Positions 1 through 19,874 of a DNA stretch of 22,694 bases are shown one piece after another. Position 1 is the stretch's first letter; every line of letters begins with the position of its first letter. A program made the position numbers and the translations under genes. The DNA is from Bdellovibrionota bacterium (GTDB lineage Bacteria; Bdellovibrionota_C; UBA2361): contig JBILDU010000043.1 in NCBI GenBank assembly GCA_044352465.1, positions 1 through 22,694 on the forward strand, written 5' to 3'. A model generated the notes under the pieces. That model saw only the letters and a list, made by a program, of their open reading frames with translations, searched no databases and was not told the DNA's origin.

Positions 1-675
1 GCGATATCCTGTGCTTGGGGCTGACGCGTAAAAGATGCCGTCGTAATTACAAGCAAAAAAACGATGGATATGACCGAAAAAAACTCCACGTATTGAGACT
101 CCCTGAGCCTCTTTGAGCACTCGGTGGAGCGCCTCTCCGTTCGTCAGAACCATCTGGCGGTCCGCCCATGGAGAAACTGCTGAGAAGGGCGGATAGTGGA
201 TGAAGACGGTTAGAAAACGCGGACCTGCCTTGAGTTCCTCCCGTAGAAATTGAAGCTCTGTCTCTTCAACTCGCCCACACCACTCGGGGGTAGCTTTCTC
301 TGAATCAAGAACGACGAAGTGTTCATCGCCGCGGCTAAAAGCGTAGGTTTGTCGTCCTGCTACTCCACACCGCTTGCGTGGCCCGAAAGGGAGCAGTTTG
401 TCCATAAGCGCCGTATCGTCGTAGTTGCCCCTGACGAAGTACCACGGGGCTTTGATCTTCGCGGTTAGCTCCGCGACTCTTGGGTAGGCATCAAGTGAAT
501 CCTTATGAACGATATCACCCGAGTGTAGGATGAAATCGAACTCTCCCTCGTTTTGGACCAGAAACTCGATAGCCTGAGCGAACCCCCGGTACACGTTGAT
601 CCCGTGGATCTCACCTTCTGGTTGCAGGAGAAGGTGAGAGTCGCTCACATGTGCGAACGTAAGCCGTTGAGTCAT
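1..675 (-). CDS. Calcineurin-like metallophosphoesterase, CpdA/Icc (3',5'-cyclic-nucleotide phosphodiesterase)-like; 3' end truncated by the window edge
   Basis: Manual translation from ATG at 675 (AAGGTG about 8 nt upstream) is open to position 1: MTQRLTFAHVSDSHL...FDFILHSGDIVH...WYFVRGNYDD...FVVLDS...VFIHYPP...GVFFGHIHR...APST. The DxH, GD, GNxD, HxP and GHxH motifs occur in canonical order. Confidence 0.88.
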   Translation of the reverse strand, partial: MTQRLTFAHVSDSHLLLQPEGEIHGINVYRGFAQAIEFLVQNEGEFDFILHSGDIVHKDSLDAYPRVAELTAKIKAPWYFVRGNYDDTALMDKLLPFGPRKRCGVAGRQTYAFSRGDEHFVVLDSEKATPEWCGRVEETELQFLREELKAGPRFLTVFIHYPPFSAVSPWADRQMVLTNGEALHRVLKEAQGVSIRGVFFGHIHRFFACNYDGIFYASAPSTGYR

Positions 676-1013: not shown

Positions 1014-3011
1014 ATGAGTGAATACGAGCGTTGTCTTGATCCTAAGCTTGGGTCTGGGTCGAGCGGTCCAGCTGATATCGGTCTGGCGCAGAAGGCGCTC
1101 GACTTCGCAGACGCCACTCTCCGGGCACCGCTGACAGGGCGGGATGGTCTCCTCCATCGCCAAGTAAAGGGAGAGCAGCCCCCGATTATTCTCGTTGCGG
1201 GCCTGTCTGGAGCCGGGAAAACTACTCTTATTCGTTTCCTCGGGGACGCCGGGATCGAATCCGCTGAGCGTCTCCTCCCACGGCCGCGGCGGGCAGATGA
1301 CACCGCCGGAGACAAGACTTGGGTCATTGAGCGTGAGGAGTCCCGAACCGGTAAACCCGTCGACCGATACTCCGAACGGTCGGTCGTTCTAAGTGATAAT
1401 AAATACACCGGGTACATCGGTTTTCGGGGCGTTCCGTTGGTGGCTCGACTCCTTAAATCGGAGGATTGCAAGGGAGTCGCGGTGATTCTCGGTCGGGGCG
1501 TCGAGGTCGCGCCAGCGATCGAATCTTTCCAAAGGATCTTGCCGAACCAGCCGATCGTCGTTGTTCGTGTCGACGCTCCAACCGCGGTCATCGCCAGCCG
1601 ACTGCAAACCCGACCAGGGGCGACGCCTCAAGAGCGTGATTCGCGGCTCGCGAAACTTGAGCCGATGAACAGAGAGGATGTTCCCCAACTTGAAGCGCTT
1701 TCTCAGTCGTGGGGTCTGACATCGATTCTTAATGTTACTGAGAGCGAACTCGCGGCGATGGGGCTGTCGGCGGGGCAGGTACGGGCTGCCACGCGTGAGA
1801 ATCTCACGGGGTGGGTTCAGACAGCGATAGATCAGGTCAAGGCGCGCTCGTCGGTGGTCGCGCGTGATATCCTTACCCCCCGTTCGATTGAATACGGCAA
1901 CCGCTTCATTCCCGACTCGGTGCTCGATGTGCTTGAGAACACTTTGGTGCCAGCTTTCAATGCGTACGGTTCGGGGCGGGGCGAATCGCGCTGGCTCTTA
2001 AAGGGGGGACTCGCGGTGGCGATCTACCTCCCGGAGTCGCGACCGGTGTCTCCTGATATCGATTTTGCGGTAACCAACTCTCCCGCGGCGGAGCAGTTTC
2101 TAGGGAAAGTGATCCAGTCGATCCTCGCTGACGATGCAAAGTTCACCCCGGCGAGTCCGAAGCCGGTTTATCACGATCGCAAATACTACGGCGAGGTTCT
2201 CAGCGCGCCTTTTAATCAAAAAGTAGAGCTCGACGCCTTAAGTGCAACTCGCATTCAGCCGGATGAGCGGAGCTTTTGTTACAAGTTCGATCTCGATTCG
2301 TATCTCAACTATTTTCGCCGTTCGGTCACCCTCCCAAACGGGGGAACGGTCGACCTGTGTCCGCCGGAGCAGATTATCACCGAGAAGCTGATCGCAGGTC
2401 GTGGGGTTGAGCTCAACAAGTTTGACCTGTTCGATTCGGCAGGACTCCTCGCCTCGGTGCCGACGCAACCGGCTTTATTTCGCCGATTATTTGAGATGCA
2501 GGCGTTTGACCCGGGATGCGATGCCGCCGTGGAGAAGAGTCTCGGGCGGTGGTCCCTGGTAAAAACTGCAAGCGTACTTGAGATACTCGGATACGATCCG
2601 AAAGATCCCCTTGTAGAGATGATCGCCCAGCGGTTGCCTGACACAGTGGTCTCGGGCAAACCTCCGCAGATGCCGAGTCCTATTCGAGTGATGACTCTGA
2701 ACGAGTTGAAACGGTTCTGTATGGCTCATCGGGCGATCAGCTCTTTAAATCGGATCGTTGAGTCGATCGAAACCCCGGTTAGGGCTGGGGAAGAGCTTAC
2801 CTCAATCGCCGAGCGGTTCGGTCGCGAGCCGGTGCTTCGTGCGGTTCAGGTTCTTAAGCTTCAGCTTACCCACTATCTGGAATTCGAGCTCGGAAACCGG
2901 GATATCTTTGTCCGGCGTGACCCAGCCCAGAGCAAGGTTGTTGCACCTGTATTCTTCGAAGGGCTCGAGGCGCAAAGAGAGCGCTTCTCCGCTCCCCCCA
3001 CAGGCGGGTGA
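1014..3011 (+). CDS. Fusion protein: N-terminal guanylate-kinase/PhnN-like P-loop kinase plus AbiEii/MenT (DUF1814-like) nucleotidyltransferase domain and a C-terminal helical region
   Basis: Walker A ILVAGLSGAGKTT (GLSGAGKT at aa 63-70), GK-like PRPRRADD and LID-like RLQTRPGATPQERDSRL. Then LLKGGLAV...RPVSPDIDF (K330, D348/D350), KVELD and EQIITEKL...KFDLFD, matching AbiEii-family motifs. Start codon uncertain (weak RBS). Confidence 0.75.
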   Translation: MSEYERCLDPKLGSGSSGPADIGLAQKALDFADATLRAPLTGRDGLLHRQVKGEQPPIILVAGLSGAGKTTLIRFLGDAGIESAERLLPRPRRADDTAGDKTWVIEREESRTGKPVDRYSERSVVLSDNKYTGYIGFRGVPLVARLLKSEDCKGVAVILGRGVEVAPAIESFQRILPNQPIVVVRVDAPTAVIASRLQTRPGATPQERDSRLAKLEPMNREDVPQLEALSQSWGLTSILNVTESELAAMGLSAGQVRAATRENLTGWVQTAIDQVKARSSVVARDILTPRSIEYGNRFIPDSVLDVLENTLVPAFNAYGSGRGESRWLLKGGLAVAIYLPESRPVSPDIDFAVTNSPAAEQFLGKVIQSILADDAKFTPASPKPVYHDRKYYGEVLSAPFNQKVELDALSATRIQPDERSFCYKFDLDSYLNYFRRSVTLPNGGTVDLCPPEQIITEKLIAGRGVELNKFDLFDSAGLLASVPTQPALFRRLFEMQAFDPGCDAAVEKSLGRWSLVKTASVLEILGYDPKDPLVEMIAQRLPDTVVSGKPPQMPSPIRVMTLNELKRFCMAHRAISSLNRIVESIETPVRAGEELTSIAERFGREPVLRAVQVLKLQLTHYLEFELGNRDIFVRRDPAQSKVVAPVFFEGLEAQRERFSAPPTGG

Positions 3012-3129
3012 TCTCGGCGCAGCTAAGGTGAACCAAGTGGTTGCGGCCGATCTTTTGGAGGCCGATTGAGCTCGTTGCATCCCGCCCGAGAGAGCACCGA
3101 CAGGTGAAAGAACTTGATGGGCGAGTGAA

Positions 3130-3164
3130 GACCGACCTTCAAACGAGCCTTTGAAAAATCGGTC
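3130..3164. terminator. Imperfect hairpin between convergent genes (possible bidirectional terminator)
   Basis: GACCGA(3130-3135)..TTCAAA(3138-3143)-loop-TTTGAA(3150-3155)..TCGGTC(3159-3164) lies between the stops at 3011 (+) and 3189 (-). No clear U-tract. Confidence 0.35.
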
Positions 3165-3188
3165 GGCGCCTTATATTGGAGTCACACG

Positions 3189-4826
3189 CTAAGATGTCGC
3201 GGCCATTCGCGGGGCTTCCGACAGGGGCGATAAGCCCATGAGCGCCCTAAGCTGCGTCAGTCGCTCCTGATAGCGGGCCGCTTCCCCATCGAAGGATCGT
3301 CCCGGACGCAACCTCGTCATCAGTTTCACGATCTGCGGCAGCGCTTCCAGGCCGTGGCCGGTCAAGTATTCGAGGTTGAGCCGTCGGCGCATAACGTCTT
3401 CAACGGTTTCCGCTTGCTCAAGGTTAAGCGCCAGAGCTACCTCGCCAACTCTCGTGTCTGCCCCAAGGGATGCGAGTTGCTCGACATCGAATCGGCCCAC
3501 ATCTCCACCGTAGCGGTGAATCAAGCGTTGAATCTGCTCTTCCGAGAGCCCGCTGCGGCGAGCATCAAGGCTAAACTTCTCAATTGTCGCTGCAGGTACG
3601 TTCGCTCGGGGCATCGTTTCCCGCCGCACAGACCGGAAAGTTTTTCCCGGAGCGATGTGTCCGAGCACTTTTTGAACCCCTTCTTCGGCCGTCCACGTCG
3701 CGGTCGTCAGCTTTCCTCCCACGAGGGAGAGAACGCGGCCACCACCGTGCCAGATGTGTTTTCGGGATAGCCGGGTGGTTCCGGCTTTGGAGTTCGGTCG
3801 CAGCGGTAACGTCCTAACGCCCGCGAAGCAATAGTGGAGCGAGGTTCTATCAAGGCCGCTTTCGGGGAGGTCCTTTTTGAGCCGAGCTAAAATCTCATCG
3901 ATCTCATCGACTGAGGGAAAGGGATCCAGATCGAGGGAGTCGGTTTCGCGCTCGGTGGTGCCAACCATCGTGCCCGCCGCGTGAGGCCAGACAAAGTAAT
4001 ACCGCGCTTTCCCCTCCATGGGGAGAAACAGGGAAGGGCCCTTCCACGGGCGATTAAAAATAAGATGAGTGCCACGGCTCAGCCGCACTTCAGGGCGTGT
4101 TCCGGCCGGAACAAGAAACGGAGCCCAAGGGCCGGCGCAGTTAAGCACCGCTGCGGCGGTCGCACGATGCGTCGTGCCGCTTAACTCATCTGTCCAAGCG
4201 ACCTCAACACCGGTTGGGCGCTCATCGAGGGAGGTAACTCCGGCGTAATTCAAGCAAATCGCTCCGTGTTGGCGCGCTGCCAGCACGTTCTCTAAAGTTA
4301 AAAGGCCGTCGTTGAGGAGTCCGTCGGTGTAGCTGTAACACCCGATGAGATCGTGACGACGCTCGTAGAAGCCTGTTTCCTGGAGTTGGTCCGAGGTTAA
4401 AAAGCAATGTTTCCGGCCTTTCTCGCGCACCATCAGGTCGTACAGATACAGACCGAGCCCTAGCTTAAGCTTGAAAAATAGCTGGCCCTTGGGGATCGGA
4501 ATCAGGAAGCGGGTCGGGCTCACGATGTGCGGGGCAGATGCAAACAGGTCTTCGCGGGCCTTGATCCCTTCAAATACCTGCTCAAAATCAAACATCTCAA
4601 GGTAGCGCAGCCCTCCGTGAGCCATCTTGGAGCTGCGGGTTGAAGTGGCGGCCCCATAATCCGCCTTTTCGAGAAGGAGGGTTCGGAGCCCTTGGGTCGC
4701 AGCACTTCGAGCGCATGCAGCGCCGTGTATGCCGCCGCCAATAATGAGTACATCGAAGTGGGCGCCGTCGGTTCGCGATAAGAGCTCACCGCGTGGTGTT
4801 GTCAGATCAATTTCCGCCGTTACCAT
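3189..4826 (-). CDS. glpD: FAD-dependent glycerol-3-phosphate dehydrogenase/oxidase
   Basis: FDVLIIGGGIHG FAD motif, TSTRSSKMAHGGLRYLE signature, NCAGPW, RGTHL, VGTTE, FAGVRTL, GGKLTT and C-terminal DVMRRR. Confidence 0.93.
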   Translation of the reverse strand: MVTAEIDLTTPRGELLSRTDGAHFDVLIIGGGIHGAACARSAATQGLRTLLLEKADYGAATSTRSSKMAHGGLRYLEMFDFEQVFEGIKAREDLFASAPHIVSPTRFLIPIPKGQLFFKLKLGLGLYLYDLMVREKGRKHCFLTSDQLQETGFYERRHDLIGCYSYTDGLLNDGLLTLENVLAARQHGAICLNYAGVTSLDERPTGVEVAWTDELSGTTHRATAAAVLNCAGPWAPFLVPAGTRPEVRLSRGTHLIFNRPWKGPSLFLPMEGKARYYFVWPHAAGTMVGTTERETDSLDLDPFPSVDEIDEILARLKKDLPESGLDRTSLHYCFAGVRTLPLRPNSKAGTTRLSRKHIWHGGGRVLSLVGGKLTTATWTAEEGVQKVLGHIAPGKTFRSVRRETMPRANVPAATIEKFSLDARRSGLSEEQIQRLIHRYGGDVGRFDVEQLASLGADTRVGEVALALNLEQAETVEDVMRRRLNLEYLTGHGLEALPQIVKLMTRLRPGRSFDGEAARYQERLTQLRALMGLSPLSEAPRMAATS

Positions 4827-4839
4827 ACATCGCTAAATT

Positions 4840-6195
4840 TTAATGCAGATGGGGGAAGGGGCGGTCGACGAACGGATCGTCCGTACCTCCAAAATTGGGG
4901 CTGTCTTGATTCTGCTTGAAGAAGACATCAATTATCCGACTGGGCTTCTGATACTCTTGTACGATGTCGATGAGCGCGTTCGTGAGATCCATTCTAATCC
5001 CCGGTACCCAGCCATCGCCAACGCGGCGCGGATCGGTCAGTCGCTTTGCTCCCCACGCCGCGTAAATGCCTTCGGCGGTCTGACCGAGCTGCGCTACAAT
5101 ATCCAATAACTTACCGCCCGCTGCAAGCTCTCGCCCCAGACGATTGTTGCGGCTATCGGTGCTCGCTGTGGTGAGGTTCAGATCCGCCCAGCCAGCAAAT
5201 GTGTGGAGTGTTCGATATCTCCCACCAAAGTGCTTCGAAAGGCGCATCATCTCTTCCATTCCTTTCGCCTTTACGAACTCAATCTCTTCAATGCCGTACC
5301 GGGGGGAGCCATCTTGGTTCTTGAGCCCCTGGACAACTCCGATCGCGATGGCGATGACATTTTTCATCGCCGCCGCTATCTCCACACCCACCGGGTCAAG
5401 AGACGTCTGCACCCGCAGGTTATCCCCGGTCAGAAGATACGAGGCTCGCCGAGCGGCCTCTTCAGAGTGCGACGCCGCGGTGAGACCAAATCGGCAACCG
5501 GATAAAATATTCTTGGCAAAGCCCGGTCCTGCGACGGCAACGACGTTTTTGACGTCCGACCATCCCTCGAGAGTTTTATAGTACTCCATCGGCGTGAGCA
5601 CGCGCGCCCCTTCCGGTGGGCCGGTAAGGAGTTGGTGAGGATCTTTTTGTGGGTCCCAGCCTTCGATGATGAAACCCTTCGTGAGGCTAATAATCAACGA
5701 GTCTGGGTGGGGGCGGAGATGAGGCAGCACCTGAGGCAAAGCCTGAGAGGGGAGCGCGACGACGATGATGCCACGGTCCAGCATTCCAACCTTGAGGCTC
5801 TGCGTCGCGCGCAGCGACTCCGACAACAGGAAGTTTTTTAGATAGCGGGGGTTCGTGTGCTGCGTATTGATTGAGTGAACAGATTCACCGTTCCGATCCC
5901 ACATCAAAACATCGACGTCATCGCCGGCGAGACGGTGGGAGATGGCCGTACCGTAGCTGCCCCCGCCGAGCATGAGCACTTTGTTGCCCCACTCCGGGCT
6001 GATCGGAAGATTGTTTACCGGTGTTTTTGGGGCACAAAAAGGCGGGAAAGGTCGGGAAGTCGCTGTCTCTACTGCTGGTATTGGCGGGAGGTTCCCGGAA
6101 AGATCAAACGATTGATCCCCACTCGGCTTAGCGCCTTTTTCCGGGTCGTGCTCGCGGGGGGCTTCTCCGTTTGGATCGATCGGATTTGGGGTCAT
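4840..6195 (-). CDS. gpsA: NAD(P)H-dependent glycerol-3-phosphate dehydrogenase with a long N-terminal extension
   Basis: LGGGSYGTA Rossmann motif, HTNPRYL, ALPSQ, LTKG, GPGFA, GVEIAAAMKNVIAIAIG (catalytic Lys), ADLNLT..SRN, AEG. ATG at 6195 preferred over TTG at 6204 because of AGGAA spacing. Stop lies 13 nt before the glpD start. Confidence 0.9.
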   Translation of the reverse strand: MTPNPIDPNGEAPREHDPEKGAKPSGDQSFDLSGNLPPIPAVETATSRPFPPFCAPKTPVNNLPISPEWGNKVLMLGGGSYGTAISHRLAGDDVDVLMWDRNGESVHSINTQHTNPRYLKNFLLSESLRATQSLKVGMLDRGIIVVALPSQALPQVLPHLRPHPDSLIISLTKGFIIEGWDPQKDPHQLLTGPPEGARVLTPMEYYKTLEGWSDVKNVVAVAGPGFAKNILSGCRFGLTAASHSEEAARRASYLLTGDNLRVQTSLDPVGVEIAAAMKNVIAIAIGVVQGLKNQDGSPRYGIEEIEFVKAKGMEEMMRLSKHFGGRYRTLHTFAGWADLNLTTASTDSRNNRLGRELAAGGKLLDIVAQLGQTAEGIYAAWGAKRLTDPRRVGDGWVPGIRMDLTNALIDIVQEYQKPSRIIDVFFKQNQDSPNFGGTDDPFVDRPFPHLH

Positions 6196-6740
6196 AGGCA
6201 CCAATTTCCTCGTACTGCTCAGCGACCTGAGGCGTTGTTTGCTCTTCCAAGATGGGCTGATTGCGCTTCCAAAGCAACAGATCCAAGGTTCAGATATCGT
6301 TAGTTTTTAGTAGCTCGGCAGGGGTGGAAAAGGCGTTTGAATTTAGGCGTTTAGGCCAGCTTGGACGCCGGAGGGCTGTGCCTCAAAAGCGGCTTCTCAC
6401 ATCCACGAATTCATCTGTCTGTGGAGCGTCTCATCTCAAGTGGGAATCAGATTTCGATAACGTTAATGGTGGGGCCGCGCCGCGGGGGCGGCACGGATTC
6501 TGCTAGTAATTCGTATGTCCCACCGAAGGGCAGGCCGAGCCTCTTGGCGGGGCCGACGCAACGGTGTGGAGGGGTGTGAATGGCTGTGGGGTGTTTTTCA
6601 AGGTCTTTCGCGGCACCTCTTCATCGAAACCCGTTCTTTCGAAATCAAAAAATTTTGCCGCCAGCCGCTGGCTGCGGCGCATGATCTCCTCCCCCACAGG
6701 GAGCCGGCTATTTTTGTGACGTCTAAGTAAGGGTGTTTCT

Positions 6741-7496
6741 ATGGTGGAAAAGATGGAGAGAGCGTTAGGGATGGCTTTGGCGACGTTGTTGCTCGGGGGA
6801 GGCGCGTCTGCTTCACCACCAGGCGCACTAGAGATCAAGGGTCCGTTGGCAGCTCTCTCGGTTGAGAGCATAACCGTTGGGGATATTACCTGTCAGGTGA
6901 CGGCGCAGACCAAGTTCGAAAAAAACGACCAACATGTCACTGCAGCTGAGTTTGCGCTGGGTGACTTGGTCGAGCTCAAGTATCTCGAGGGTCTCTGTCT
7001 CGAGCTTGAGGACGAGCGTCCTAAAGGCACTGGGGGGAGCGTCGGCAACGGTTCGGGATCTCCTAAAGAGCGTCTCACCGCGAAACTAGTGCCGATCGCG
7101 GGCGGTGCAACCGGCGGCAGTGGTAAGGTCAAGGCCGAGAAGCAAAACTCGAAGTCAAAGGTTGAAGTTGAAGCGAAGATACCCCGAGCAGGCGATAGCG
7201 GTGGTGATGTCGTCGTTTCGGTGGAAAGTGGCGGTAAGGTCTGCGAGCTGAAGGTAAGAGGGGATCGTCGGTCCCGACGCGGAGCCGCGCAGTCTGGGAG
7301 GATTCAAGCCAAACTGGAGCTTGAACAACGCTCACGAAACGGAACCGTCACCACGAAGATTAAGCAAGGTAAGTGTGCGAGTGGTCCGATCGAAATCACG
7401 GCAGGCCAGGCGGTCGTGGTGAAGCTCAATGGGGCCGTGGTGCTTTCCGGTACTCCTGCGCTACGAGCGACGCCGAGCCCGACTCCGACGCCGTAA
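6741..7496 (+). CDS. Secreted protein with a DUF5666-like beta domain, Gly-rich linker and Pro/Thr tail
   Basis: Signal-peptide-like ALGMALATLLLGGGASA, then EIKGPLAALSVESITVGDITCQVTAQTKFE...LGDLVELK resembling DUF5666, and a C-terminal ATPSPTPTP. The start could be a downstream Met (6753 or 6771). Confidence 0.6.
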   Translation: MVEKMERALGMALATLLLGGGASASPPGALEIKGPLAALSVESITVGDITCQVTAQTKFEKNDQHVTAAEFALGDLVELKYLEGLCLELEDERPKGTGGSVGNGSGSPKERLTAKLVPIAGGATGGSGKVKAEKQNSKSKVEVEAKIPRAGDSGGDVVVSVESGGKVCELKVRGDRRSRRGAAQSGRIQAKLELEQRSRNGTVTTKIKQGKCASGPIEITAGQAVVVKLNGAVVLSGTPALRATPSPTPTP

Positions 7497-7592: not shown

Positions 7593-8609
7593 CTACGTCT
7601 CGGGCGTATGGTGACGTCGAGTCGAGCGCCATGCCTCGCGGAGTTCGCGCCCCGCTACGGCAAGGCCTATCGTGACGAGGACGATAATCGACAGAATCCG
7701 CAGCTCCGCCGAGATCAGCAGGCCCTTCGACATGCCGATGTGGGCCTGAGCGCACAGGAGCCCGTACGCGATCTCCCGTATCCCGATGTTGCCTGGGGTG
7801 ACGTTGATATGGAAGGTCAGTCGATAAAGCGCGTAAAAGACGGCCAAAGTTGCAAAGTCCACCTCGGCACCGATCGCCCCCAGGAGTATGCGAAAGACGT
7901 GGGTCATGAGTAAGAACGAAGCAATGGCGATGGCGGTTGTCGCCGCCATGTAGCGTGGCTGACGAAGGCCTCGAGTGAGCTCCTCAGCTACTTCGGCAAG
8001 CTTACGAACGATCTTCGCGGGGGTGGGAAGTGCTCTCAGGAGACGCTGCGCCAAAAAAGGTGCGGCTATAAGCACGGCTGACGCTAGTCCGAGAAAGGTA
8101 TCTGCGGATAACCCGAAGAGCTCGAGCGTGGTATCGCCGAGGGTAAAAAGAAGAAACGCAAGGAGAAAATTAAGGAGCGTGTCGCTCCATACAAAGAAGA
8201 TGTTTGCCGCGATGTAGTCGGTGTAGGTCACCCCAAAGTCGCGCTTGAGAGCGATTCCTCGGTGGACACTGCCCATCTGCGGCACGAGGTTGTTCATAAA
8301 GCGGACAACGACGAGCATGCGTATCCAGTCGAGCAGCGGAATGCGACAGCCACAGTGTTGCTCGATGAGGAGTACAAACCGCTGGGCATGGAGAACGAAA
8401 TAGAGGATCAGAATCGCCACGATCGAGAGAATGTCGAACGGAGCGATCTCCTTGGCTTCGAGGAGGATATCTTTGTCCCGGGCAAGCGACCAAACAACAA
8501 AGATGACACTGATAGCGGCGATCGTTCCTTGGACAAGCTTATACCAATGAGGGATCGTCTTTGAGGACGGGGACGTCTCGGGCGGCGGGAGAGGGGTCTG
8601 GTGATTCAC
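7593..8609 (-). CDS. Lysylphosphatidylglycerol-synthase TM-region (flippase-like, UPF0104) membrane protein
   Basis: Multiple TM helices with the family-typical patterns HAQRFVLL, FMNNLVPQMG and TPGNIGIRE. Confidence 0.8.
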   Translation of the reverse strand: MNHQTPLPPPETSPSSKTIPHWYKLVQGTIAAISVIFVVWSLARDKDILLEAKEIAPFDILSIVAILILYFVLHAQRFVLLIEQHCGCRIPLLDWIRMLVVVRFMNNLVPQMGSVHRGIALKRDFGVTYTDYIAANIFFVWSDTLLNFLLAFLLFTLGDTTLELFGLSADTFLGLASAVLIAAPFLAQRLLRALPTPAKIVRKLAEVAEELTRGLRQPRYMAATTAIAIASFLLMTHVFRILLGAIGAEVDFATLAVFYALYRLTFHINVTPGNIGIREIAYGLLCAQAHIGMSKGLLISAELRILSIIVLVTIGLAVAGRELREAWRSTRRHHTPET

Positions 8610-8630
8610 CTGGGCAGCTCGTTCTTACCT

Positions 8631-9353
8631 TCAACGCCAGTCGCTTGCGAACTGCTCCAGAGTCCGGGCGAGTCGGGTTTGATCGATCGCGCTGCGCGGA
8701 CGAAACACCGCCATTCGCCCGACCATCTCCGTGAGTTCGAGGAAGTCTTCAACAATCCGGTAGTGCGGCCGCCCGATGTAATCATCAAAGAGAATTGTCC
8801 AGTCGGTGCGATGGATAAGACGAGCCGCCGCTTCGAGAGTGCAGGCTACCCTAAAACGTCCATCGACGAGAATCAGGTCGGGGGCGAAATCGGGTGCCCC
8901 TTTCGCCCAAGGAGCCGTGAAGTAACGCCTCCAGCGCTCTCGCCGAGCCGCGGTGGGCTTACGGAATACCGGTTTTCCCCAGGCCTCCGTCAGTCCGATG
9001 TCGATGTGCATGAGGCGTTGCCGTGAGGGGTCGATGGAGTGCCCACGTGAGCCGATCTTCGCGGCAACTGCGTTGAGAAAGTATCGATCAGACTCTATGG
9101 TTACAAAGCTCTTTCCCAGCGCGGCGGCGAGGAACGTCGAGCCCCCGGAGCCGAATTCAAGGTAGCTCCGCGCCTGCTCGAGGCGTTCGATAAAGAAGGG
9201 AGTACTCACCGCATCAAAGTGGGGGGCGCTCGGAACAGGAAAGCCAACGACGCGTTGCATGTAGAGGGAATGGACGATGCGGCCCCACCGTCGTAACTCT
9301 TTGGGGAGAGAAGCTCGGGGGGTGGGGTTGGGGTCTACTTTTTCAGCGTCCAT
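8631..9353 (-). CDS. Class I SAM-dependent methyltransferase-like protein (glycan-cluster associated)
   Basis: YLEFGSGGST motif I, TIESD, DLILVDGRFRVAC, ILFDDY..RPHY. Lies 21 nt upstream of the flippase-like gene on the same strand. Confidence 0.65.
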   Translation of the reverse strand: MDAEKVDPNPTPRASLPKELRRWGRIVHSLYMQRVVGFPVPSAPHFDAVSTPFFIERLEQARSYLEFGSGGSTFLAAALGKSFVTIESDRYFLNAVAAKIGSRGHSIDPSRQRLMHIDIGLTEAWGKPVFRKPTAARRERWRRYFTAPWAKGAPDFAPDLILVDGRFRVACTLEAAARLIHRTDWTILFDDYIGRPHYRIVEDFLELTEMVGRMAVFRPRSAIDQTRLARTLEQFASDWR

Positions 9354-9616
9354 AACTTCATGTCAGCCTTCGGTTTTTTGAGCGCAGCTCGGGCATCCTA
9401 CCTGAGGGGGCACGGTGGAGTAAATCACCTGTCGTTGTGATTTCCGGGAGGTACCCTGTCTGCCGTATCCCCCGTTGCTACCTGCGTCGTTGCGGATACC
9501 TTGCCCCGCCGAGGATATGTTTTGGCGCACTTTCTACCCGCAAACTCAGGCGGTTATGCAAAATGGAGAGAGGCGTGCTAAGGTTCGTTGGTCAGCTCAT
9601 TTGCACGCCACGCCCT

Positions 9617-10489
9617 ATGGAGCCCCTCGTTTCAATTATTGTGCCGCTTAAAAACGAGGAGAAACGCCTTCCAATTCTCCTCGAGGCACTTCAGATGCTC
9701 GACTATCCGAGAGAGCGCTACGAGATCCTTGTGGCTGATAATGGTTCGACCGATGGCTCGGTAGCGGTGGCGCAGAGCTTCCCGGGGGTAGCCGTGTGCG
9801 TGGAGCCGCGCGGCGGTTCATATGCGGCGCGAAACGCCGGGATACGTTTGGGGCGGGGGGAAATATTCGCCTTCACTGATGGTGATTGTACACCCGAGGT
9901 TGGGTGGCTTCGAGCGGGAGTGGCACGGCTGGAGAGCGGTGCCGATCTTGTGGCGGGGGCGATCAATTTTGAGCTCTCGAAGCCCTCGCTAGCTCACCGC
10001 TTCGATCGGAAGTTCTTCCTTCAACAAGAGCGGTGGGTGGCGGAGAAAAATGCCGGCGCCACGGCGAATCTCTTTGTTCGGCGTTCAGTAATCGAACGGG
10101 TTGGCGGATTTTCGGAGGAGCTCACCTCAGGGGGAGATTTCGCTTTTTGCAAAAAGGCGACCGCGGGGGGTTTCGAGTTGGTGTATGAGCCGATGGCGAT
10201 TGTGCGTCATCCGACCCGGGGATTAGGGGCGCTTCTGCGGAAGGCCCGACGTATCGGTGGGGGGAAGGTGGAACGTTTACGCCATACAACGACGAAGTCT
10301 CGCGATGTCGTTCCCCAGCGCCGTCAGATCGTGAAGCTTTTGGAGGGCGAGTCGTTCAGGGTGAAAGTGGGGTTTCTCGGGATATACGGGGCAATTTGCG
10401 GTGCCGGTATTGTGGGAGCGATCGGGTATCTGTGGCGGAGCCGCCGACGCGTCGCGGTGATGCCAAATCCCACCTCTGATCGTCGTTGA
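9617..10489 (+). CDS. Glycosyltransferase family 2 (GT-A fold)
   Basis: VSIIVPLKNEE, EILVADNGSTDGS, AARNAG, FAFTDGDC (DxD), GGFSEEL..GGDFAF. Start placed at ATG 9617 (MEPLVS), where the GT2 fold begins, not at 9437. Confidence 0.9.
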   Translation: MEPLVSIIVPLKNEEKRLPILLEALQMLDYPRERYEILVADNGSTDGSVAVAQSFPGVAVCVEPRGGSYAARNAGIRLGRGEIFAFTDGDCTPEVGWLRAGVARLESGADLVAGAINFELSKPSLAHRFDRKFFLQQERWVAEKNAGATANLFVRRSVIERVGGFSEELTSGGDFAFCKKATAGGFELVYEPMAIVRHPTRGLGALLRKARRIGGGKVERLRHTTTKSRDVVPQRRQIVKLLEGESFRVKVGFLGIYGAICGAGIVGAIGYLWRSRRRVAVMPNPTSDRR

Positions 10490-15274: not shown

Positions 15275-17467
15275 CTACGGCTCTACTTCGTTTGTCACCG
15301 CGGAGATCGAGGGTTCAAAGCGGTGTAATGTTGCTCGTTGTTTCCCCGCCCGAAATACGGTTGGCATAATGGCTCCTTCGCGAGCAACGAGCGAGCCGAG
15401 GAAGAATTCAAATGAGTCCACTCGGAGTAGAAACGGTAGGGTAGACCCCCGGTCCTTCTCACTGAGAAGATATACCGTGTACCCGAGTGCCTGAGCTTCT
15501 GCCATGAGGGCGCGCAGTGGCTCTCCGGTCAGGTTGCGACGCGAATAGGTAATCGTGGGAATACCAAATGATATTTGGAGCGGTGTCGTGAGTTCGACCC
15601 GGGCAAAGTTCACTTCATCAACGAAGATGAGCGACCTTGGGCCCACGGTCGCGGCGAGCCGCTTTAACTCAGCATAGAGCTCGCCGGCCTCAGTGGCGCG
15701 AGCCTGCGCCCAGGAGAAGGGCAGCATACAGGCGAGGGCGAGAGTGACGAGGGCACCACGGAGGGCCGCGGACGCTTTCCCTTGACGAAGTTGCACCGTC
15801 TCGAGCCCGAGGGCTCCGAGGAGGATCGCGACAGGCACCAACGTTGGTACCAGGTAGCGCCCAAAGTAGTAGAGATACGGCGCGGTAGTTTGCTTTCCGA
15901 CGAGCGCGAGGGCGAGCCCCATCGCGGTGAGGCAAAGAAGCGCCGCGCGTGGGGATGTTGGCGCCCGGCGGAGGCAACGAATCCACCCGAGAGCGGCTAG
16001 GAGGACGACGACGGGCGAGACAAAGAAGGTGAGAACAATCGACGTAAGGTGTTTGAGTGACCATACCCCGTGACCGGAGAGGTTCCACCGTTGCCCGATC
16101 CATCGGTTCGCAGCGTAGTGGTCGGTATACCCCAAGCGCCATCCTTTGAGCGCGAGGTAGCTCCCAAAAGCCCCCAACGCGAGTATTCCGCAGGTCGCGA
16201 GCAACCGCTTCGTCGGGCGGAAGTTTAGTATGCAACGCGGGAACTTGCCGTTGATCCGTGGGGTGAAGATAAGGGGTAGGATTGAAGCGAATAGCACCGC
16301 GCTACTCAGCAGCGTTGGATGGTCGACAACAAGGTCGAGCGCGGTGTTGGGGAGTCCGATTTTCGACCATATCGCCATTGAGTACGGCCGGCTCCAGGTT
16401 AGTCCGTGGTAAAGGCTCCACAGAAAAAGGGTAAGTGTGACGACCCACCCAACAAGAGGGATCCGGTATCCTCCCCGATACGCGGCGAGGAACAGCGCGG
16501 GATAGAGGGGGATGAGGAAGATAAAGCCGGTGATATGGGTGAAGAAGAACAGTCCGGCGAATACAGCCCCGAAGATTACCTCTGGAAGACGTGAGAGCCG
16601 GCCGAATGAGAAAAAATAGAGTGAGCTCAAAAAGAAGAGCGATGTCGTGACCTCCGACACCGGAAACCGCGCAAAATAGGCATAGGCGGGACTTACGGCA
16701 AGCAGAAGGGTTCCGACGAAGGGGGTCCACTTTCCCCTCGAGATATCAACGAGCAGGAGGTAGAAAACCGCGAGGCAGAGAAGCCCAAATATGAACAAGA
16801 TACTCGTAGTATTCTCGCCGCCAAGAGTAAGATTGCTGAACGCCATCCAGATCGAATGGAGGTGGTAAAACTGCGGCGTGATTTCCGAGGGTGCTATCCC
16901 GCGGAGATAGAAGCCCGGCTGAAAGGATCCGCGGCAGCCCCCATCGGGCTTACACGCCATCGCTCGATACGACTCCTTGAAGTAAAGCTTTCCAAGGGCC
17001 GTATCTCTTTTCGACAGCGGCTCAGCGAGAGGGTCGACGATGGTGAGCTCCCCACGAAGCGCCAGGGAATTAGCGATGTTGACGTAGACACCTGGGTCTT
17101 GCCCGCCACGCACATAGTTCATCGTGGGATAGCGGAACGCGGCCCCGATGGCGAGGCAAACGAGTAACGGAATAAGTTGGACCTGGTGGGGCTGATGAGA
17201 GGAGGCGGTAACGGCAGTGCGTCTTTCGACGAGCACAAGGAGCCCTAAGAGAGCCGCAATTCCTCCGCTCAGTCCAGCGACGATCCACTCGACGCGAAAG
17301 TGATTGCTCTCGACCAAGACTATTCCGACAAAGGAGGGCAGGATGAGTGCGAGGAGAGCGATCTCAATAACGCCACGGGGGGAGAGCAGGGGGACGCCCC
17401 GTCGGGCGAGGCGTGCCAAGAGCGCGCCGCTGAGCAGGGATAGAAATGCGAATGCGACGAAAACCAT
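15275..17467 (-). CDS. Multi-TM GT-C-like (ArnT/PMT family) membrane glycosyltransferase
   Basis: Many TM helices, a first large loop with GGQDPGVY, PQFYHLHSIW, LLAVSP..YFARFPVSE, RYLVP, and a soluble C-terminal domain. Confidence 0.7.
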   Translation of the reverse strand: MVFVAFAFLSLLSGALLARLARRGVPLLSPRGVIEIALLALILPSFVGIVLVESNHFRVEWIVAGLSGGIAALLGLLVLVERRTAVTASSHQPHQVQLIPLLVCLAIGAAFRYPTMNYVRGGQDPGVYVNIANSLALRGELTIVDPLAEPLSKRDTALGKLYFKESYRAMACKPDGGCRGSFQPGFYLRGIAPSEITPQFYHLHSIWMAFSNLTLGGENTTSILFIFGLLCLAVFYLLLVDISRGKWTPFVGTLLLAVSPAYAYFARFPVSEVTTSLFFLSSLYFFSFGRLSRLPEVIFGAVFAGLFFFTHITGFIFLIPLYPALFLAAYRGGYRIPLVGWVVTLTLFLWSLYHGLTWSRPYSMAIWSKIGLPNTALDLVVDHPTLLSSAVLFASILPLIFTPRINGKFPRCILNFRPTKRLLATCGILALGAFGSYLALKGWRLGYTDHYAANRWIGQRWNLSGHGVWSLKHLTSIVLTFFVSPVVVLLAALGWIRCLRRAPTSPRAALLCLTAMGLALALVGKQTTAPYLYYFGRYLVPTLVPVAILLGALGLETVQLRQGKASAALRGALVTLALACMLPFSWAQARATEAGELYAELKRLAATVGPRSLIFVDEVNFARVELTTPLQISFGIPTITYSRRNLTGEPLRALMAEAQALGYTVYLLSEKDRGSTLPFLLRVDSFEFFLGSLVAREGAIMPTVFRAGKQRATLHRFEPSISAVTNEVEP

Positions 17468-17601
17468 TCTACTTTAACTGTCCGTGAGGAGCCGGAGTCC
17501 GAGCCGGGTCCGGTAGTAGGATCGGGGGAGCCATTTCCCCGTCTCCCAGTGTTTCCCGGGGGATACGGGGAGTCAAGCGGGTAGGCGCGGCGGGGGGCTT
17601 T

Positions 17602-17630
17602 TTGCCCTGGGGCGGTTTCCGAGCTATTAT
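17602..17630 (+). promoter_or_regulatory. Putative sigma70 promoter for the GT4-GT2-DASS-HAD operon
   Basis: TTGCCC (17602-17607), 17-nt spacer, TATTAT (17625-17630), about 60 nt upstream of ATG 17692. Confidence 0.45.
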
Positions 17631-17691
17631 CCGCCTCGGCTTCAGGGCCGGGGCGGTAGCCCTCTTTTACTCGACTCAACACGGGAGTTCG

Positions 17692-18837
17692 ATGTCGCGC
17701 ATTCTCTTTGTCCTCGATGAGCTGTTCCCGGTTCGTGGGGCACCCCAGGTGAGGATAAAGAATCTCATGGCCGCTTTGCCCGACTGGACAGTCCGTGGAG
17801 TCGGCGGCCAGCATGCGCCCGGAGATGCGCCGTCGGAGTTTTACCTCCTCGATCGTCCAGCGGAGCGTCGCCCACTGGCGTTCGTGCTGTTTCTTCGACG
17901 GTTAGGGGCGGCAGCAGTTCGAGTTGCCCGTCAAGAACGCCCTGACGTCGTTGTAGTCTCAGTGCCGAAGTACGAGATGCTCGCGATAGCTCCGCGTCTC
18001 AAGAGGAATACGGGGCGGCTTATCCTTGACTTCCGCGACTCGCTTGCTTTTCTTGATTATGGTGCCTACCTCGCCCATTTCCTGCCGACGTTCGTAGCTC
18101 ATCCAGTGGGGCGTATTTTCTCTCGGCTCAATCGATTGCTCCAGCGCAGAGCGATCGCCGCGGCCGATGTCGTTACGGTAGCCAACGAGGGAATTAAAGC
18201 GACGGTGGATCATCCGCAGGTGGTCGTCGTACCCAATGGGGTCGACACGGAGTCGTTTCGCCCAGAGGGCAAGCGGTGGTTCGATGGGACTCGCCCGTTG
18301 AGGCTCGTCTATCTCGGAAATTTCGCGGAGAAAGATCGCTTTGAATGGCTAGAGGCCTTTGAGGGGCGCACGGACATTGAGCTGCATCTCATCGGAGATG
18401 GGCGAAATCGTGAGAGGGTCGTCGCCAATCTGGTTGGTCTGAATGTGGTTGTCCACGGAGTCGTCCCCCATGAGAAGCTTCCTGCGCTTCTCGCTCAGAT
18501 GGATCTGGGGTTTATTTTTCGCGACAAGGGGGTCGATCAGTCAATTCCCGTTTGCCTCTTTGAGTTCACCGCGATGAATATCCCCTCGATCTGTAACGAC
18601 ACTGGTCTCATGGCGCATTTTGTGCGGGAACGTGATATAGGCTTTGTCGTTGAGGGGGTTGATGAGCTCAAAGGGCTCATCAACCGTATCGTTCGGGACC
18701 CCCGCGATTTTAGCCGGTATCGGTGCCTTCACGAAGTTGCTGAAAGATCGTTCTCGCTCAGCGCTAGCCGCGAGATTTTTCGGCAGTTGATTGCAGGGAA
18801 TGCGGCGACTACAGCTCAAGCGGAGAACGGGGCGTGA
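17692..18837 (+). CDS. Glycosyltransferase family 4 (GT-B fold)
   Basis: MSRILFV, ILDFRD, VVPNGVDTESF, LVYLGNF..KD, LHLIGDG, IPVCLFEFTAMNIP. ATG 17692 with GGGAG RBS at 17683-17687. Confidence 0.88.
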   Translation: MSRILFVLDELFPVRGAPQVRIKNLMAALPDWTVRGVGGQHAPGDAPSEFYLLDRPAERRPLAFVLFLRRLGAAAVRVARQERPDVVVVSVPKYEMLAIAPRLKRNTGRLILDFRDSLAFLDYGAYLAHFLPTFVAHPVGRIFSRLNRLLQRRAIAAADVVTVANEGIKATVDHPQVVVVPNGVDTESFRPEGKRWFDGTRPLRLVYLGNFAEKDRFEWLEAFEGRTDIELHLIGDGRNRERVVANLVGLNVVVHGVVPHEKLPALLAQMDLGFIFRDKGVDQSIPVCLFEFTAMNIPSICNDTGLMAHFVRERDIGFVVEGVDELKGLINRIVRDPRDFSRYRCLHEVAERSFSLSASREIFRQLIAGNAATTAQAENGA

Positions 18838-19874
18838 AACTTATCATTCAGATACCGTGCTTTAACGAGGAAAAGACGCTGCCGTCTGTTTTTGAGGGGA
18901 TGCCCCGCTCAATCCGGGGCATCGATACGATCGAGTATCAGATTATCGACGACGGTTCGACCGATCGTACGGTGGAGGTCGCACAGGCTCTCGGAGTTCA
19001 CCATGTGGTGACTGCCGGACGCCGTAATCGTCGCTGGCTCGGTCGAGCATTTCGGCTTGGGGTTGATAATGCCTTGGCACACGGTGCTGATATCGTCGTG
19101 AACACCGACGGTGATAATCAGTATCCTTCACATCTGATTGATTCGCTCGTACGGCCGATCCTCGAGGGGAAGGCTGATATCGTCATCGGTGACCGCGCTC
19201 CCGGTAAGGTCAAAGAGTTTTCATGGCTGAAGCGGAAACTCCAGGTTTTCGGCAGCGGAGTTATTCAGTTCCTCACCGGTTCGGAAGTGCGCGATGCGGT
19301 GAGCGGATTTCGCGCCTATAGCCGCGAGGCGCTGCTGAAGATCCACGTGCTCACGAACTACACCTATACGGTTGATACGCTGATTCAGGCCCACAAGAAG
19401 GGACTCGATATAGAGTGGGTGCCGATTACGACGAATCCCAAGACGCGCGAGTCCCGGCTCATTAAGAGTCTTTTTTCGAAGGTGCGAAAATCGGGCGCGA
19501 CGATCGTCCGACTGGTGACTCTCTACGATCCGTTTCGGACCTTTTTGTGGTTCTCGCTGGTTTTCGCGATCCCTGGATTGTTTCTCTTGGCGCGATTTTT
19601 CTTCTTTTACGTCGTCTTGAGCGGCGTAGGCACGGGGCTTGTACAATCAGTTGTCGTGGGTGGAGTTTTGCTCGTCATCGCGGTGCAGATGTTTGTGCTA
19701 GGAATACTGGCCGATCTGCTTTCGGCGAACCGCACCCTTATAGAGGATCTTCTCGGGAGGATTCGTAAGCTTGAGCTACGTGGTTTAAGAGGTGAGGACT
19801 CCCCCATAAAAGCAGATTCTCAGGAGGGGCCCCGCTCGGACTGTCCCCCAGGTAAGATCGATGGCGGGAGCTGA
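18834..19874 (+). CDS. GT2, DPM1/GtrB-like polyprenol-phosphate glycosyltransferase with two C-terminal TM helices
   Basis: LIIQIPCFNEE, IDDGSTDRT, NTDGDNQY, DIVIGDR, DAVSGFRAYSR and two C-terminal hydrophobic helices. GTGA start/stop overlap with GT4. Confidence 0.9.
   Translation: MKLIIQIPCFNEEKTLPSVFEGMPRSIRGIDTIEYQIIDDGSTDRTVEVAQALGVHHVVTAGRRNRRWLGRAFRLGVDNALAHGADIVVNTDGDNQYPSHLIDSLVRPILEGKADIVIGDRAPGKVKEFSWLKRKLQVFGSGVIQFLTGSEVRDAVSGFRAYSREALLKIHVLTNYTYTVDTLIQAHKKGLDIEWVPITTNPKTRESRLIKSLFSKVRKSGATIVRLVTLYDPFRTFLWFSLVFAIPGLFLLARFFFFYVVLSGVGTGLVQSVVVGGVLLVIAVQMFVLGILADLLSANRTLIEDLLGRIRKLELRGLRGEDSPIKADSQEGPRSDCPPGKIDGGS

Follow-up and report, generated by a model that had tools for sequence, protein, structure and literature searches.

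The subject of this analysis is a gene near one end of a 22,694-nucleotide contig of a Bdellovibrionota bacterium (GCA_044352465.1, JBILDU010000043.1; this whole stretch is called the window below). It encodes P0001, a fusion of a guanylate kinase (Gmk)-like kinase to a DUF1814 nucleotidyltransferase (NTase). We propose, with a probability of about 45%, that the fusion serves as the writer in a small writer-eraser module whose substrate is a phosphorylated compound of low molecular weight, most likely from the glycerol-3-phosphate pool, and that it is not an AbiE toxin. Its pairing with a phosphodiesterase, and often with glycerol-phosphate genes, suggests a chemical cycle of addition and removal instead of a standard anti-phage toxin. 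The features are listed in Table 1.

The gene is a single uninterrupted frame, as the initial annotation had stated. Every motif claimed there was found at its position, and both domain calls, a Gmk-like kinase and an AbiEii/MenT-type NTase, stand. Residues 1-40 form a variable tail of low confidence. The possibility of a chimeric assembly was tested, and an artefact is ruled out as the origin of the fusion: the junction between the two halves was spanned by contigs of three public runs, none of these three flagged as a possible source (X5, X6, and X9). Four runs were compared; X12 yielded short pieces only. The X5 and X6 contigs had zero differences across the junction. X9 is a separate but related strain, less than 85% alike over positions 1075-1453 of the window, which hold the N-terminal tail and the nucleoside monophosphate (NMP)-binding part of the kinase, versus about 96% over positions 1453-6400. 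The 20 runs listed were mainly lake and freshwater metagenomes.

The search for relatives gave 18 matches in the 90% collection and 65 among the 50% representatives. In total, 98 proteins were collected; 63 of them had 540-730 residues, and reduction to less than 75% identity left 42 full-length relatives. Our results showed that the fusion family is real and conserved. The initial annotation knew of no description of the architecture, and none was found in the open-access literature searched, including the available text of PMC10435456 and PMC9503650.

The kinase domain resembles Gmk in its P-loop and in the arginines of the NMP-binding domain and the LID. P0001 retains the Walker A lysine K69 and R90, R93, R196, R200, and R211. 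Residues were counted in the 34 rows outside the kinase-dead class, in an alignment that included Gmk proteins of related genomes: R90, R196, and R211 were present in all 34, R93 and R200 in 32, and K69 in 31. The difference from Gmk lies in the loss of the guanine-site Glu and of the D-x-D motif, where P0001 has S127 and I-x-G160. The Glu column is A, S, or G in 30/34 rows; hydrophobic-x-Gly takes the position of D-x-D, the second Asp column being Gly in 30/34. We take the roles of these columns (phosphate-binding Arg, guanine-specifying Glu, D-x-D) to be those of Gmk. The domain also scored far under the curated Gmk cut-offs (PRK14738, 20.4 bits vs. 263; TIGR03263, 12.2 bits vs. 160). An ordinary gmk occurs elsewhere in the genome, at C125, the only match of the genome to PF00625. 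Judged by its residues and scores, the domain is derived from Gmk yet no longer a Gmk. PhnN (ribose 1,5-bisphosphokinase), itself a Gmk derivative, was a weak profile match (TIGR02322, 20.6 bits vs. a cut-off of 156), and no phn genes, as in a phn operon, occurred among the annotated neighbours of the family loci.

The C-terminal half was tested for a non-NTase fold and belongs to the DUF1814/AbiEii-like superfamily by profile, fold, and motifs. PF08843 matched P0001 with 27.8 bits (gathering threshold 22.5; many relatives score under it). The predicted model (predicted template modelling score 0.92) has two lobes, a Pol-beta head and a helical lobe, and its best seven fold matches were MenT1, TM1012, Pb27, MenT4, MenT3, JHP933, and ANT(2''). 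About 180 C-terminal residues had been described as unassigned helices; they are helical, but most of them make up the helical lobe of the DUF1814 fold. G332, R343, D348, D350, D407, K458, K469, D471, and D474 were each found in 40/42 rows, S346, the putative phospho-acceptor, in 39, and E452 in all 42. Two rows (P0057 and P0075) had lost the NTase aspartates.

According to the accessible part of PMC7450476, S78 of MenT3 is a phosphoserine, and S78, D80, K189, and D211 are reported as phosphoserine or as required for toxicity. Matched by motif, not by superposition, their counterparts are S346, D348, K458, and D474 (or D471). In the text available for bioRxiv 10.64898/2026.01.19.700257, the antitoxin silences AbiEii by inducing its auto-phosphorylation at T65, the matching position; ANT(2'')-Ia is also counted there in the superfamily of AbiEii. 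The small-molecule nucleotidyltransferases ANT(2'')-Ia and LnuA matched more weakly than MenT, have no fused kinase, and use antibiotics as acceptors. MenT1, MenT3, MenT4, and AbiEii lack the N-terminal kinase and the helical-lobe insertion of the fusion family, which has a signature of its own, K-L-x-A-G-R-G..K-x-D-x-x-D, and phosphodiesterase and metabolic surroundings instead of an AbiEi/MenA neighbour.

The main rival to the writer-eraser module is a MenT-like toxin that extends the 3' ends of tRNAs by nucleotide addition, its kinase-like domain being an in-cis switch (by nucleotide sensing or by promoting phosphorylation of S346) and the phosphoesterase an antidote that repairs the target. 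We consider it less likely, though MenT proteins (MenT1, MenT4, and MenT3) take three of the five best fold ranks and the counterparts of the MenT3 residues are retained in 39-40 of the 42 rows. No AbiEi/MenA antitoxin, the cognate neighbour expected in an AbiE/MenAT system, adjoins the fusion, whose flanks are the phosphodiesterase and glpD (open reading frames of at least 80 residues). The same search detected a canonical AbiEi-AbiEii pair at C141 of this genome, the only place with AbiEi_4; AbiEi_2 was not found in the genome, and the searches for AbiEi_1 and AbiEi_3 had no positive control. The genome has five more PF08843 genes (C141, C116, C5, C7, and C4), and of these only the one at C141 had an AbiEi match among the four antitoxin families searched. 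Other points against a toxin are that defence genes were not recognised among the annotated neighbours of the family loci, that the catalytic head is more acidic than basic (22 K+R vs. 27 D+E, a crude proxy), and that viral, phage, and plasmid collections held no match to the fusion. We know of no GpdQ/CpdA-like enzyme that acts as a tRNA exonuclease.

The toxin explanation draws further on the sister loci. Kinase-dead fusions (L048, L049, and L071, from two families) adjoin a phosphomannomutase and an RNase Z-like hydrolase, with a HAD gene in two. Three NTase-only paralogs, all from one genus, converge on a four-gene operon of 2H, HD, APH-like kinase, and ATP-grasp proteins (weak matches), and the HD protein resembles the HD region of CCA enzymes. 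After the operon of L074, a small P-loop kinase and a glycerophosphodiesterase lie nearby. RNase Z-like, 2H, and HD-type folds serve in RNA end healing, as far as the available text of PMC9503650 goes. Patchy spread (15/91 genomes), allele swapping, and loss of the fusion while its partner stays would likewise fit a toxin and its antidote. The partner-fold classes of RNA end-healing sets (P-loop kinase, HAD, 2H, HD or calcineurin-like phosphoesterase, nucleotidyltransferase or ligase) do recur beside the family. However, the kinases of those sets act on a 5'-OH, whereas the fusion kinase is built for a phosphomonoester, as is Gmk, and none of the genes recognised beside the kinase-intact loci was an RNA ligase.

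The phosphodiesterase was present in 10 of the 12 genomes with a kinase-intact fusion: it adjoins the fusion in nine and lies one gene off in the tenth, and the two remaining loci are interrupted by contig ends. The phosphodiesterase was missing within 7 kb in one of two metagenome loci, and the other was cut. The partners belong to two subfamilies with about 20% identity, arranged divergently, convergently, or co-directionally, and in identity and tree shape they follow the fusion, not gpsA2/glpD. A profile made from 12 partners and homologs had its top match in 2dxl/2zo9, followed by Rv0805; we take 2dxl to be GpdQ, a look-up to confirm this having found nothing. The second subfamily had its top match in 2nxf. 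The latter is an ADP-ribose/CDP-alcohol diphosphatase, and GpdQ and Rv0805 are close homologs with different substrates (available portions of PMC3407115 and PMC3535393, respectively). In the partner encoded in the window, GNYD replaces the usual GNHD and HYP replaces HHP; among the ten partners aligned, GNYD is common only to this protein and those of L009 and L010. Loss of the GNHD histidine may push such an enzyme toward diesterase activity. The initial proposal of a single-gene defence or effector protein was not supported, as the gene belongs with the phosphodiesterase to a module of several genes, in neighbourhoods that are metabolic and not of the defence type.

An extra gpsA paralog and glpD adjoin the fusion in 8 of the 12 kinase-intact genomes. 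The long gpsA occurs in about 10 of the 91 genomes of the order, nine found by search plus G012, where a fragment at a contig end, next to the fusion, is all that is visible of it. The fusion adjoins it in 8 of the 10 carriers (table 8/2/4/77); the nominal p of 2e-7 is too strong because related genomes are not independent. Long GpsA is extended at its N-terminus, carries a conserved insertion, and exists in addition to the ordinary copy; in the versions of genus g11, the nucleotide-binding segment is altered. HAD-IIA, GlpK, glycerate kinase, and PfkB genes also recur near the fusion loci.

These neighbours could also be read as targets. By a logic like that of GlnE or MntA, the Gmk-like domain would sense a phosphometabolite, the NTase would mark a protein (e.g., GlpD or the additional GpsA), and removal of the mark would fall to the phosphodiesterase. 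We find this regulatory nucleotidylation of proteins improbable. The writer-eraser pairing, the insertion-bearing GpsA form that travels with the locus, and a kinase-dead clade compatible with a sensor or scaffold agree with it; against it, long GpsA is kept without the fusion in G001 and G055 and is missing from 4 of the 12 loci, and to our knowledge no DUF1814 member nucleotidylates another protein.

For the writer-eraser module, we infer all of the reactions, and the substrate, from the observed folds, motifs, selection, and neighbourhood. In a first step, the Gmk-derived domain would use ATP to convert a phosphomonoester other than GMP to a diphosphate, much as PhnN acts on a sugar phosphate, either to prime the substrate or to recycle released NMP. 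The DUF1814 domain would then move NMP from a nucleoside triphosphate onto the metabolite, at either a hydroxyl or a phosphate, in analogy to the action of ANT(2'')-Ia on aminoglycosides. Finally, the neighbouring phosphodiesterase, with the HAD phosphatase where present, would dismantle the product. The likeliest substrate pool would be glycerol-3-phosphate, with the extra GpsA and GlpD to feed and drain it, and the next candidate a nucleotide turned into a signal. The same phosphorylate-then-nucleotidylate logic on a metabolite appears in the NadR-type fusion of a kinase and a nucleotidyltransferase (available text of PMC9503650), but NadR has a HIGH-superfamily transferase and another kinase, and is an analogy only. 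A two-step enzyme, suggested initially, is plausible for the kinase-intact majority and not for all of the family: 8 of the 42 relatives, forming one kinase-dead clade, have lost the kinase site, and two the NTase site, so the two activities are separable.

Several observations weigh against a tight pathway of this kind. G001, a genome of the same genus, retains gpsA2, glpD, and the phosphodiesterase, and only about 270 bases lie in the place of the fusion; G055 keeps gpsA2, glpD, and a phosphodiesterase of the second type without it. Close homologs of the phosphodiesterase or the RNase Z-like hydrolase occurred without an NTase of the family in 10/10 loci examined. The dependence is one-way: the fusion is nearly always found with a phosphoesterase, and not the reverse. 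In G001 (L078:38-2792), the phosphodiesterase comes directly after glpD, and the stretch between them holds no trace of the fusion.

A wider version of the writer-eraser module is a new nucleotide-metabolite system, which we regard as rather unlikely. The product of the fusion would be a signal or regulatory metabolite, either a nucleotidylated glycerol-phosphate or a related dinucleotide that bears a diphosphate; the dedicated phosphodiesterase would erase it, and sister modules would swap the suppliers (phosphomannomutase, PfkB, APH-like kinase) and the erasers (MBL, HD, 2H).

The fusion was present in 15 of the 91 genomes of the order, with the kinase site intact in 12 and lost in three; three genomes of the order had an NTase-only paralog. 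None was found in the remaining 33 of the 124 phylum genomes searched. Named outliers are Rubripirellula reticaptiva, a planctomycete (P0069), and a Peribacteraceae genome (P0082). P0082 is alignable over both domains (probability 99.9), and its NTase nests among stand-alone NTases of 225-260 residues (FastTree, midpoint root; support 0.988), which suggests a second, apparently independent fusion event. The stand-alone proteins P0080, P0084, P0086, P0087, and P0090-P0096 (225-261 residues) form a clade that shares the signatures RPxS-x-D-x-DF and AGRG..GKYDL. Both domains were under purifying selection in the two pairs with estimable synonymous divergence; two other pairs were saturated.

This history bears on the explanation that an orphan AbiEii-like gene fused to a gmk copy and hitchhikes beside metabolic genes, its neighbourhood being without functional meaning. 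Since a single order supplied most loci, and a single genus many of them, the neighbourhood counts are inflated by shared ancestry; glpD-like genes are present in 78/91 genomes regardless. Against it, the fusion has re-associated with two phosphodiesterase subfamilies that are unrelated, in several layouts, both domains are under selection, and P0082 is a second, apparently independent fusion; we consider hitchhiking very improbable.

Farther along the window, the protein encoded at positions 6741-7496 (+) has a single DUF5666 domain and probably a signal peptide. Inspection of the translations by eye placed glycosyltransferase-like and membrane genes of the surface-polysaccharide type at positions 7593-10489 and 15275-19874.

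Table 1. Features of the fusion locus (window positions) and of the operons beside stand-alone NTases (locus positions)
Feature	Position	Strand	Remarks
Calcineurin-like phosphodiesterase, GpdQ/CpdA/Rv0805 group	1..675	-	Divergent from the fusion; truncated by the contig end; proposed eraser
Kinase/NTase fusion P0001	1014..3011	+	Gmk-like kinase and DUF1814 nucleotidyltransferase, 665 aa
Guanylate-kinase-derived domain, aa 54-280	1173..1853	+	Best profile and fold matches are Gmk
DUF1814 catalytic head, aa 294-500	1893..2513	+	G331-G332, R343, S346, D348, D350, D407, E452, K458, R463, K469, D471, D474
Helical lobe of the DUF1814 fold with family-specific insertion, aa 501-641	2514..2936	+	Predicted model, fold comparison
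GlpD-type FAD glycerol-3-phosphate dehydrogenase	3189..4826	-	Convergent with the fusion
Second, long GpsA paralog (NAD(P)H glycerol-3-phosphate dehydrogenase)	4840..6204	-	454 aa; ordinary copy at G000:C85
2H/HD/APH-like/ATP-grasp operon beside stand-alone NTase	L072:2796-8393; L073:3014-8482; L074:3146-8257		

In the accessible parts of the literature surveyed, the bacterial DUF1814 enzymes whose activity is known comprise tRNA toxins under antitoxin control and an enzyme that modifies antibiotics. The fusion family directly tests whether this fold also runs housekeeping or signalling chemistry, because it has a full active site, no usual antitoxin, a kinase of its own, and phosphodiesterases of several folds. 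If the toxin explanation were true, the family would represent a new mode of control, by an in-cis kinase-like switch and an enzymatic antidote. The relative in the cultured species R. reticaptiva (WP_146534041.1) makes the family testable.
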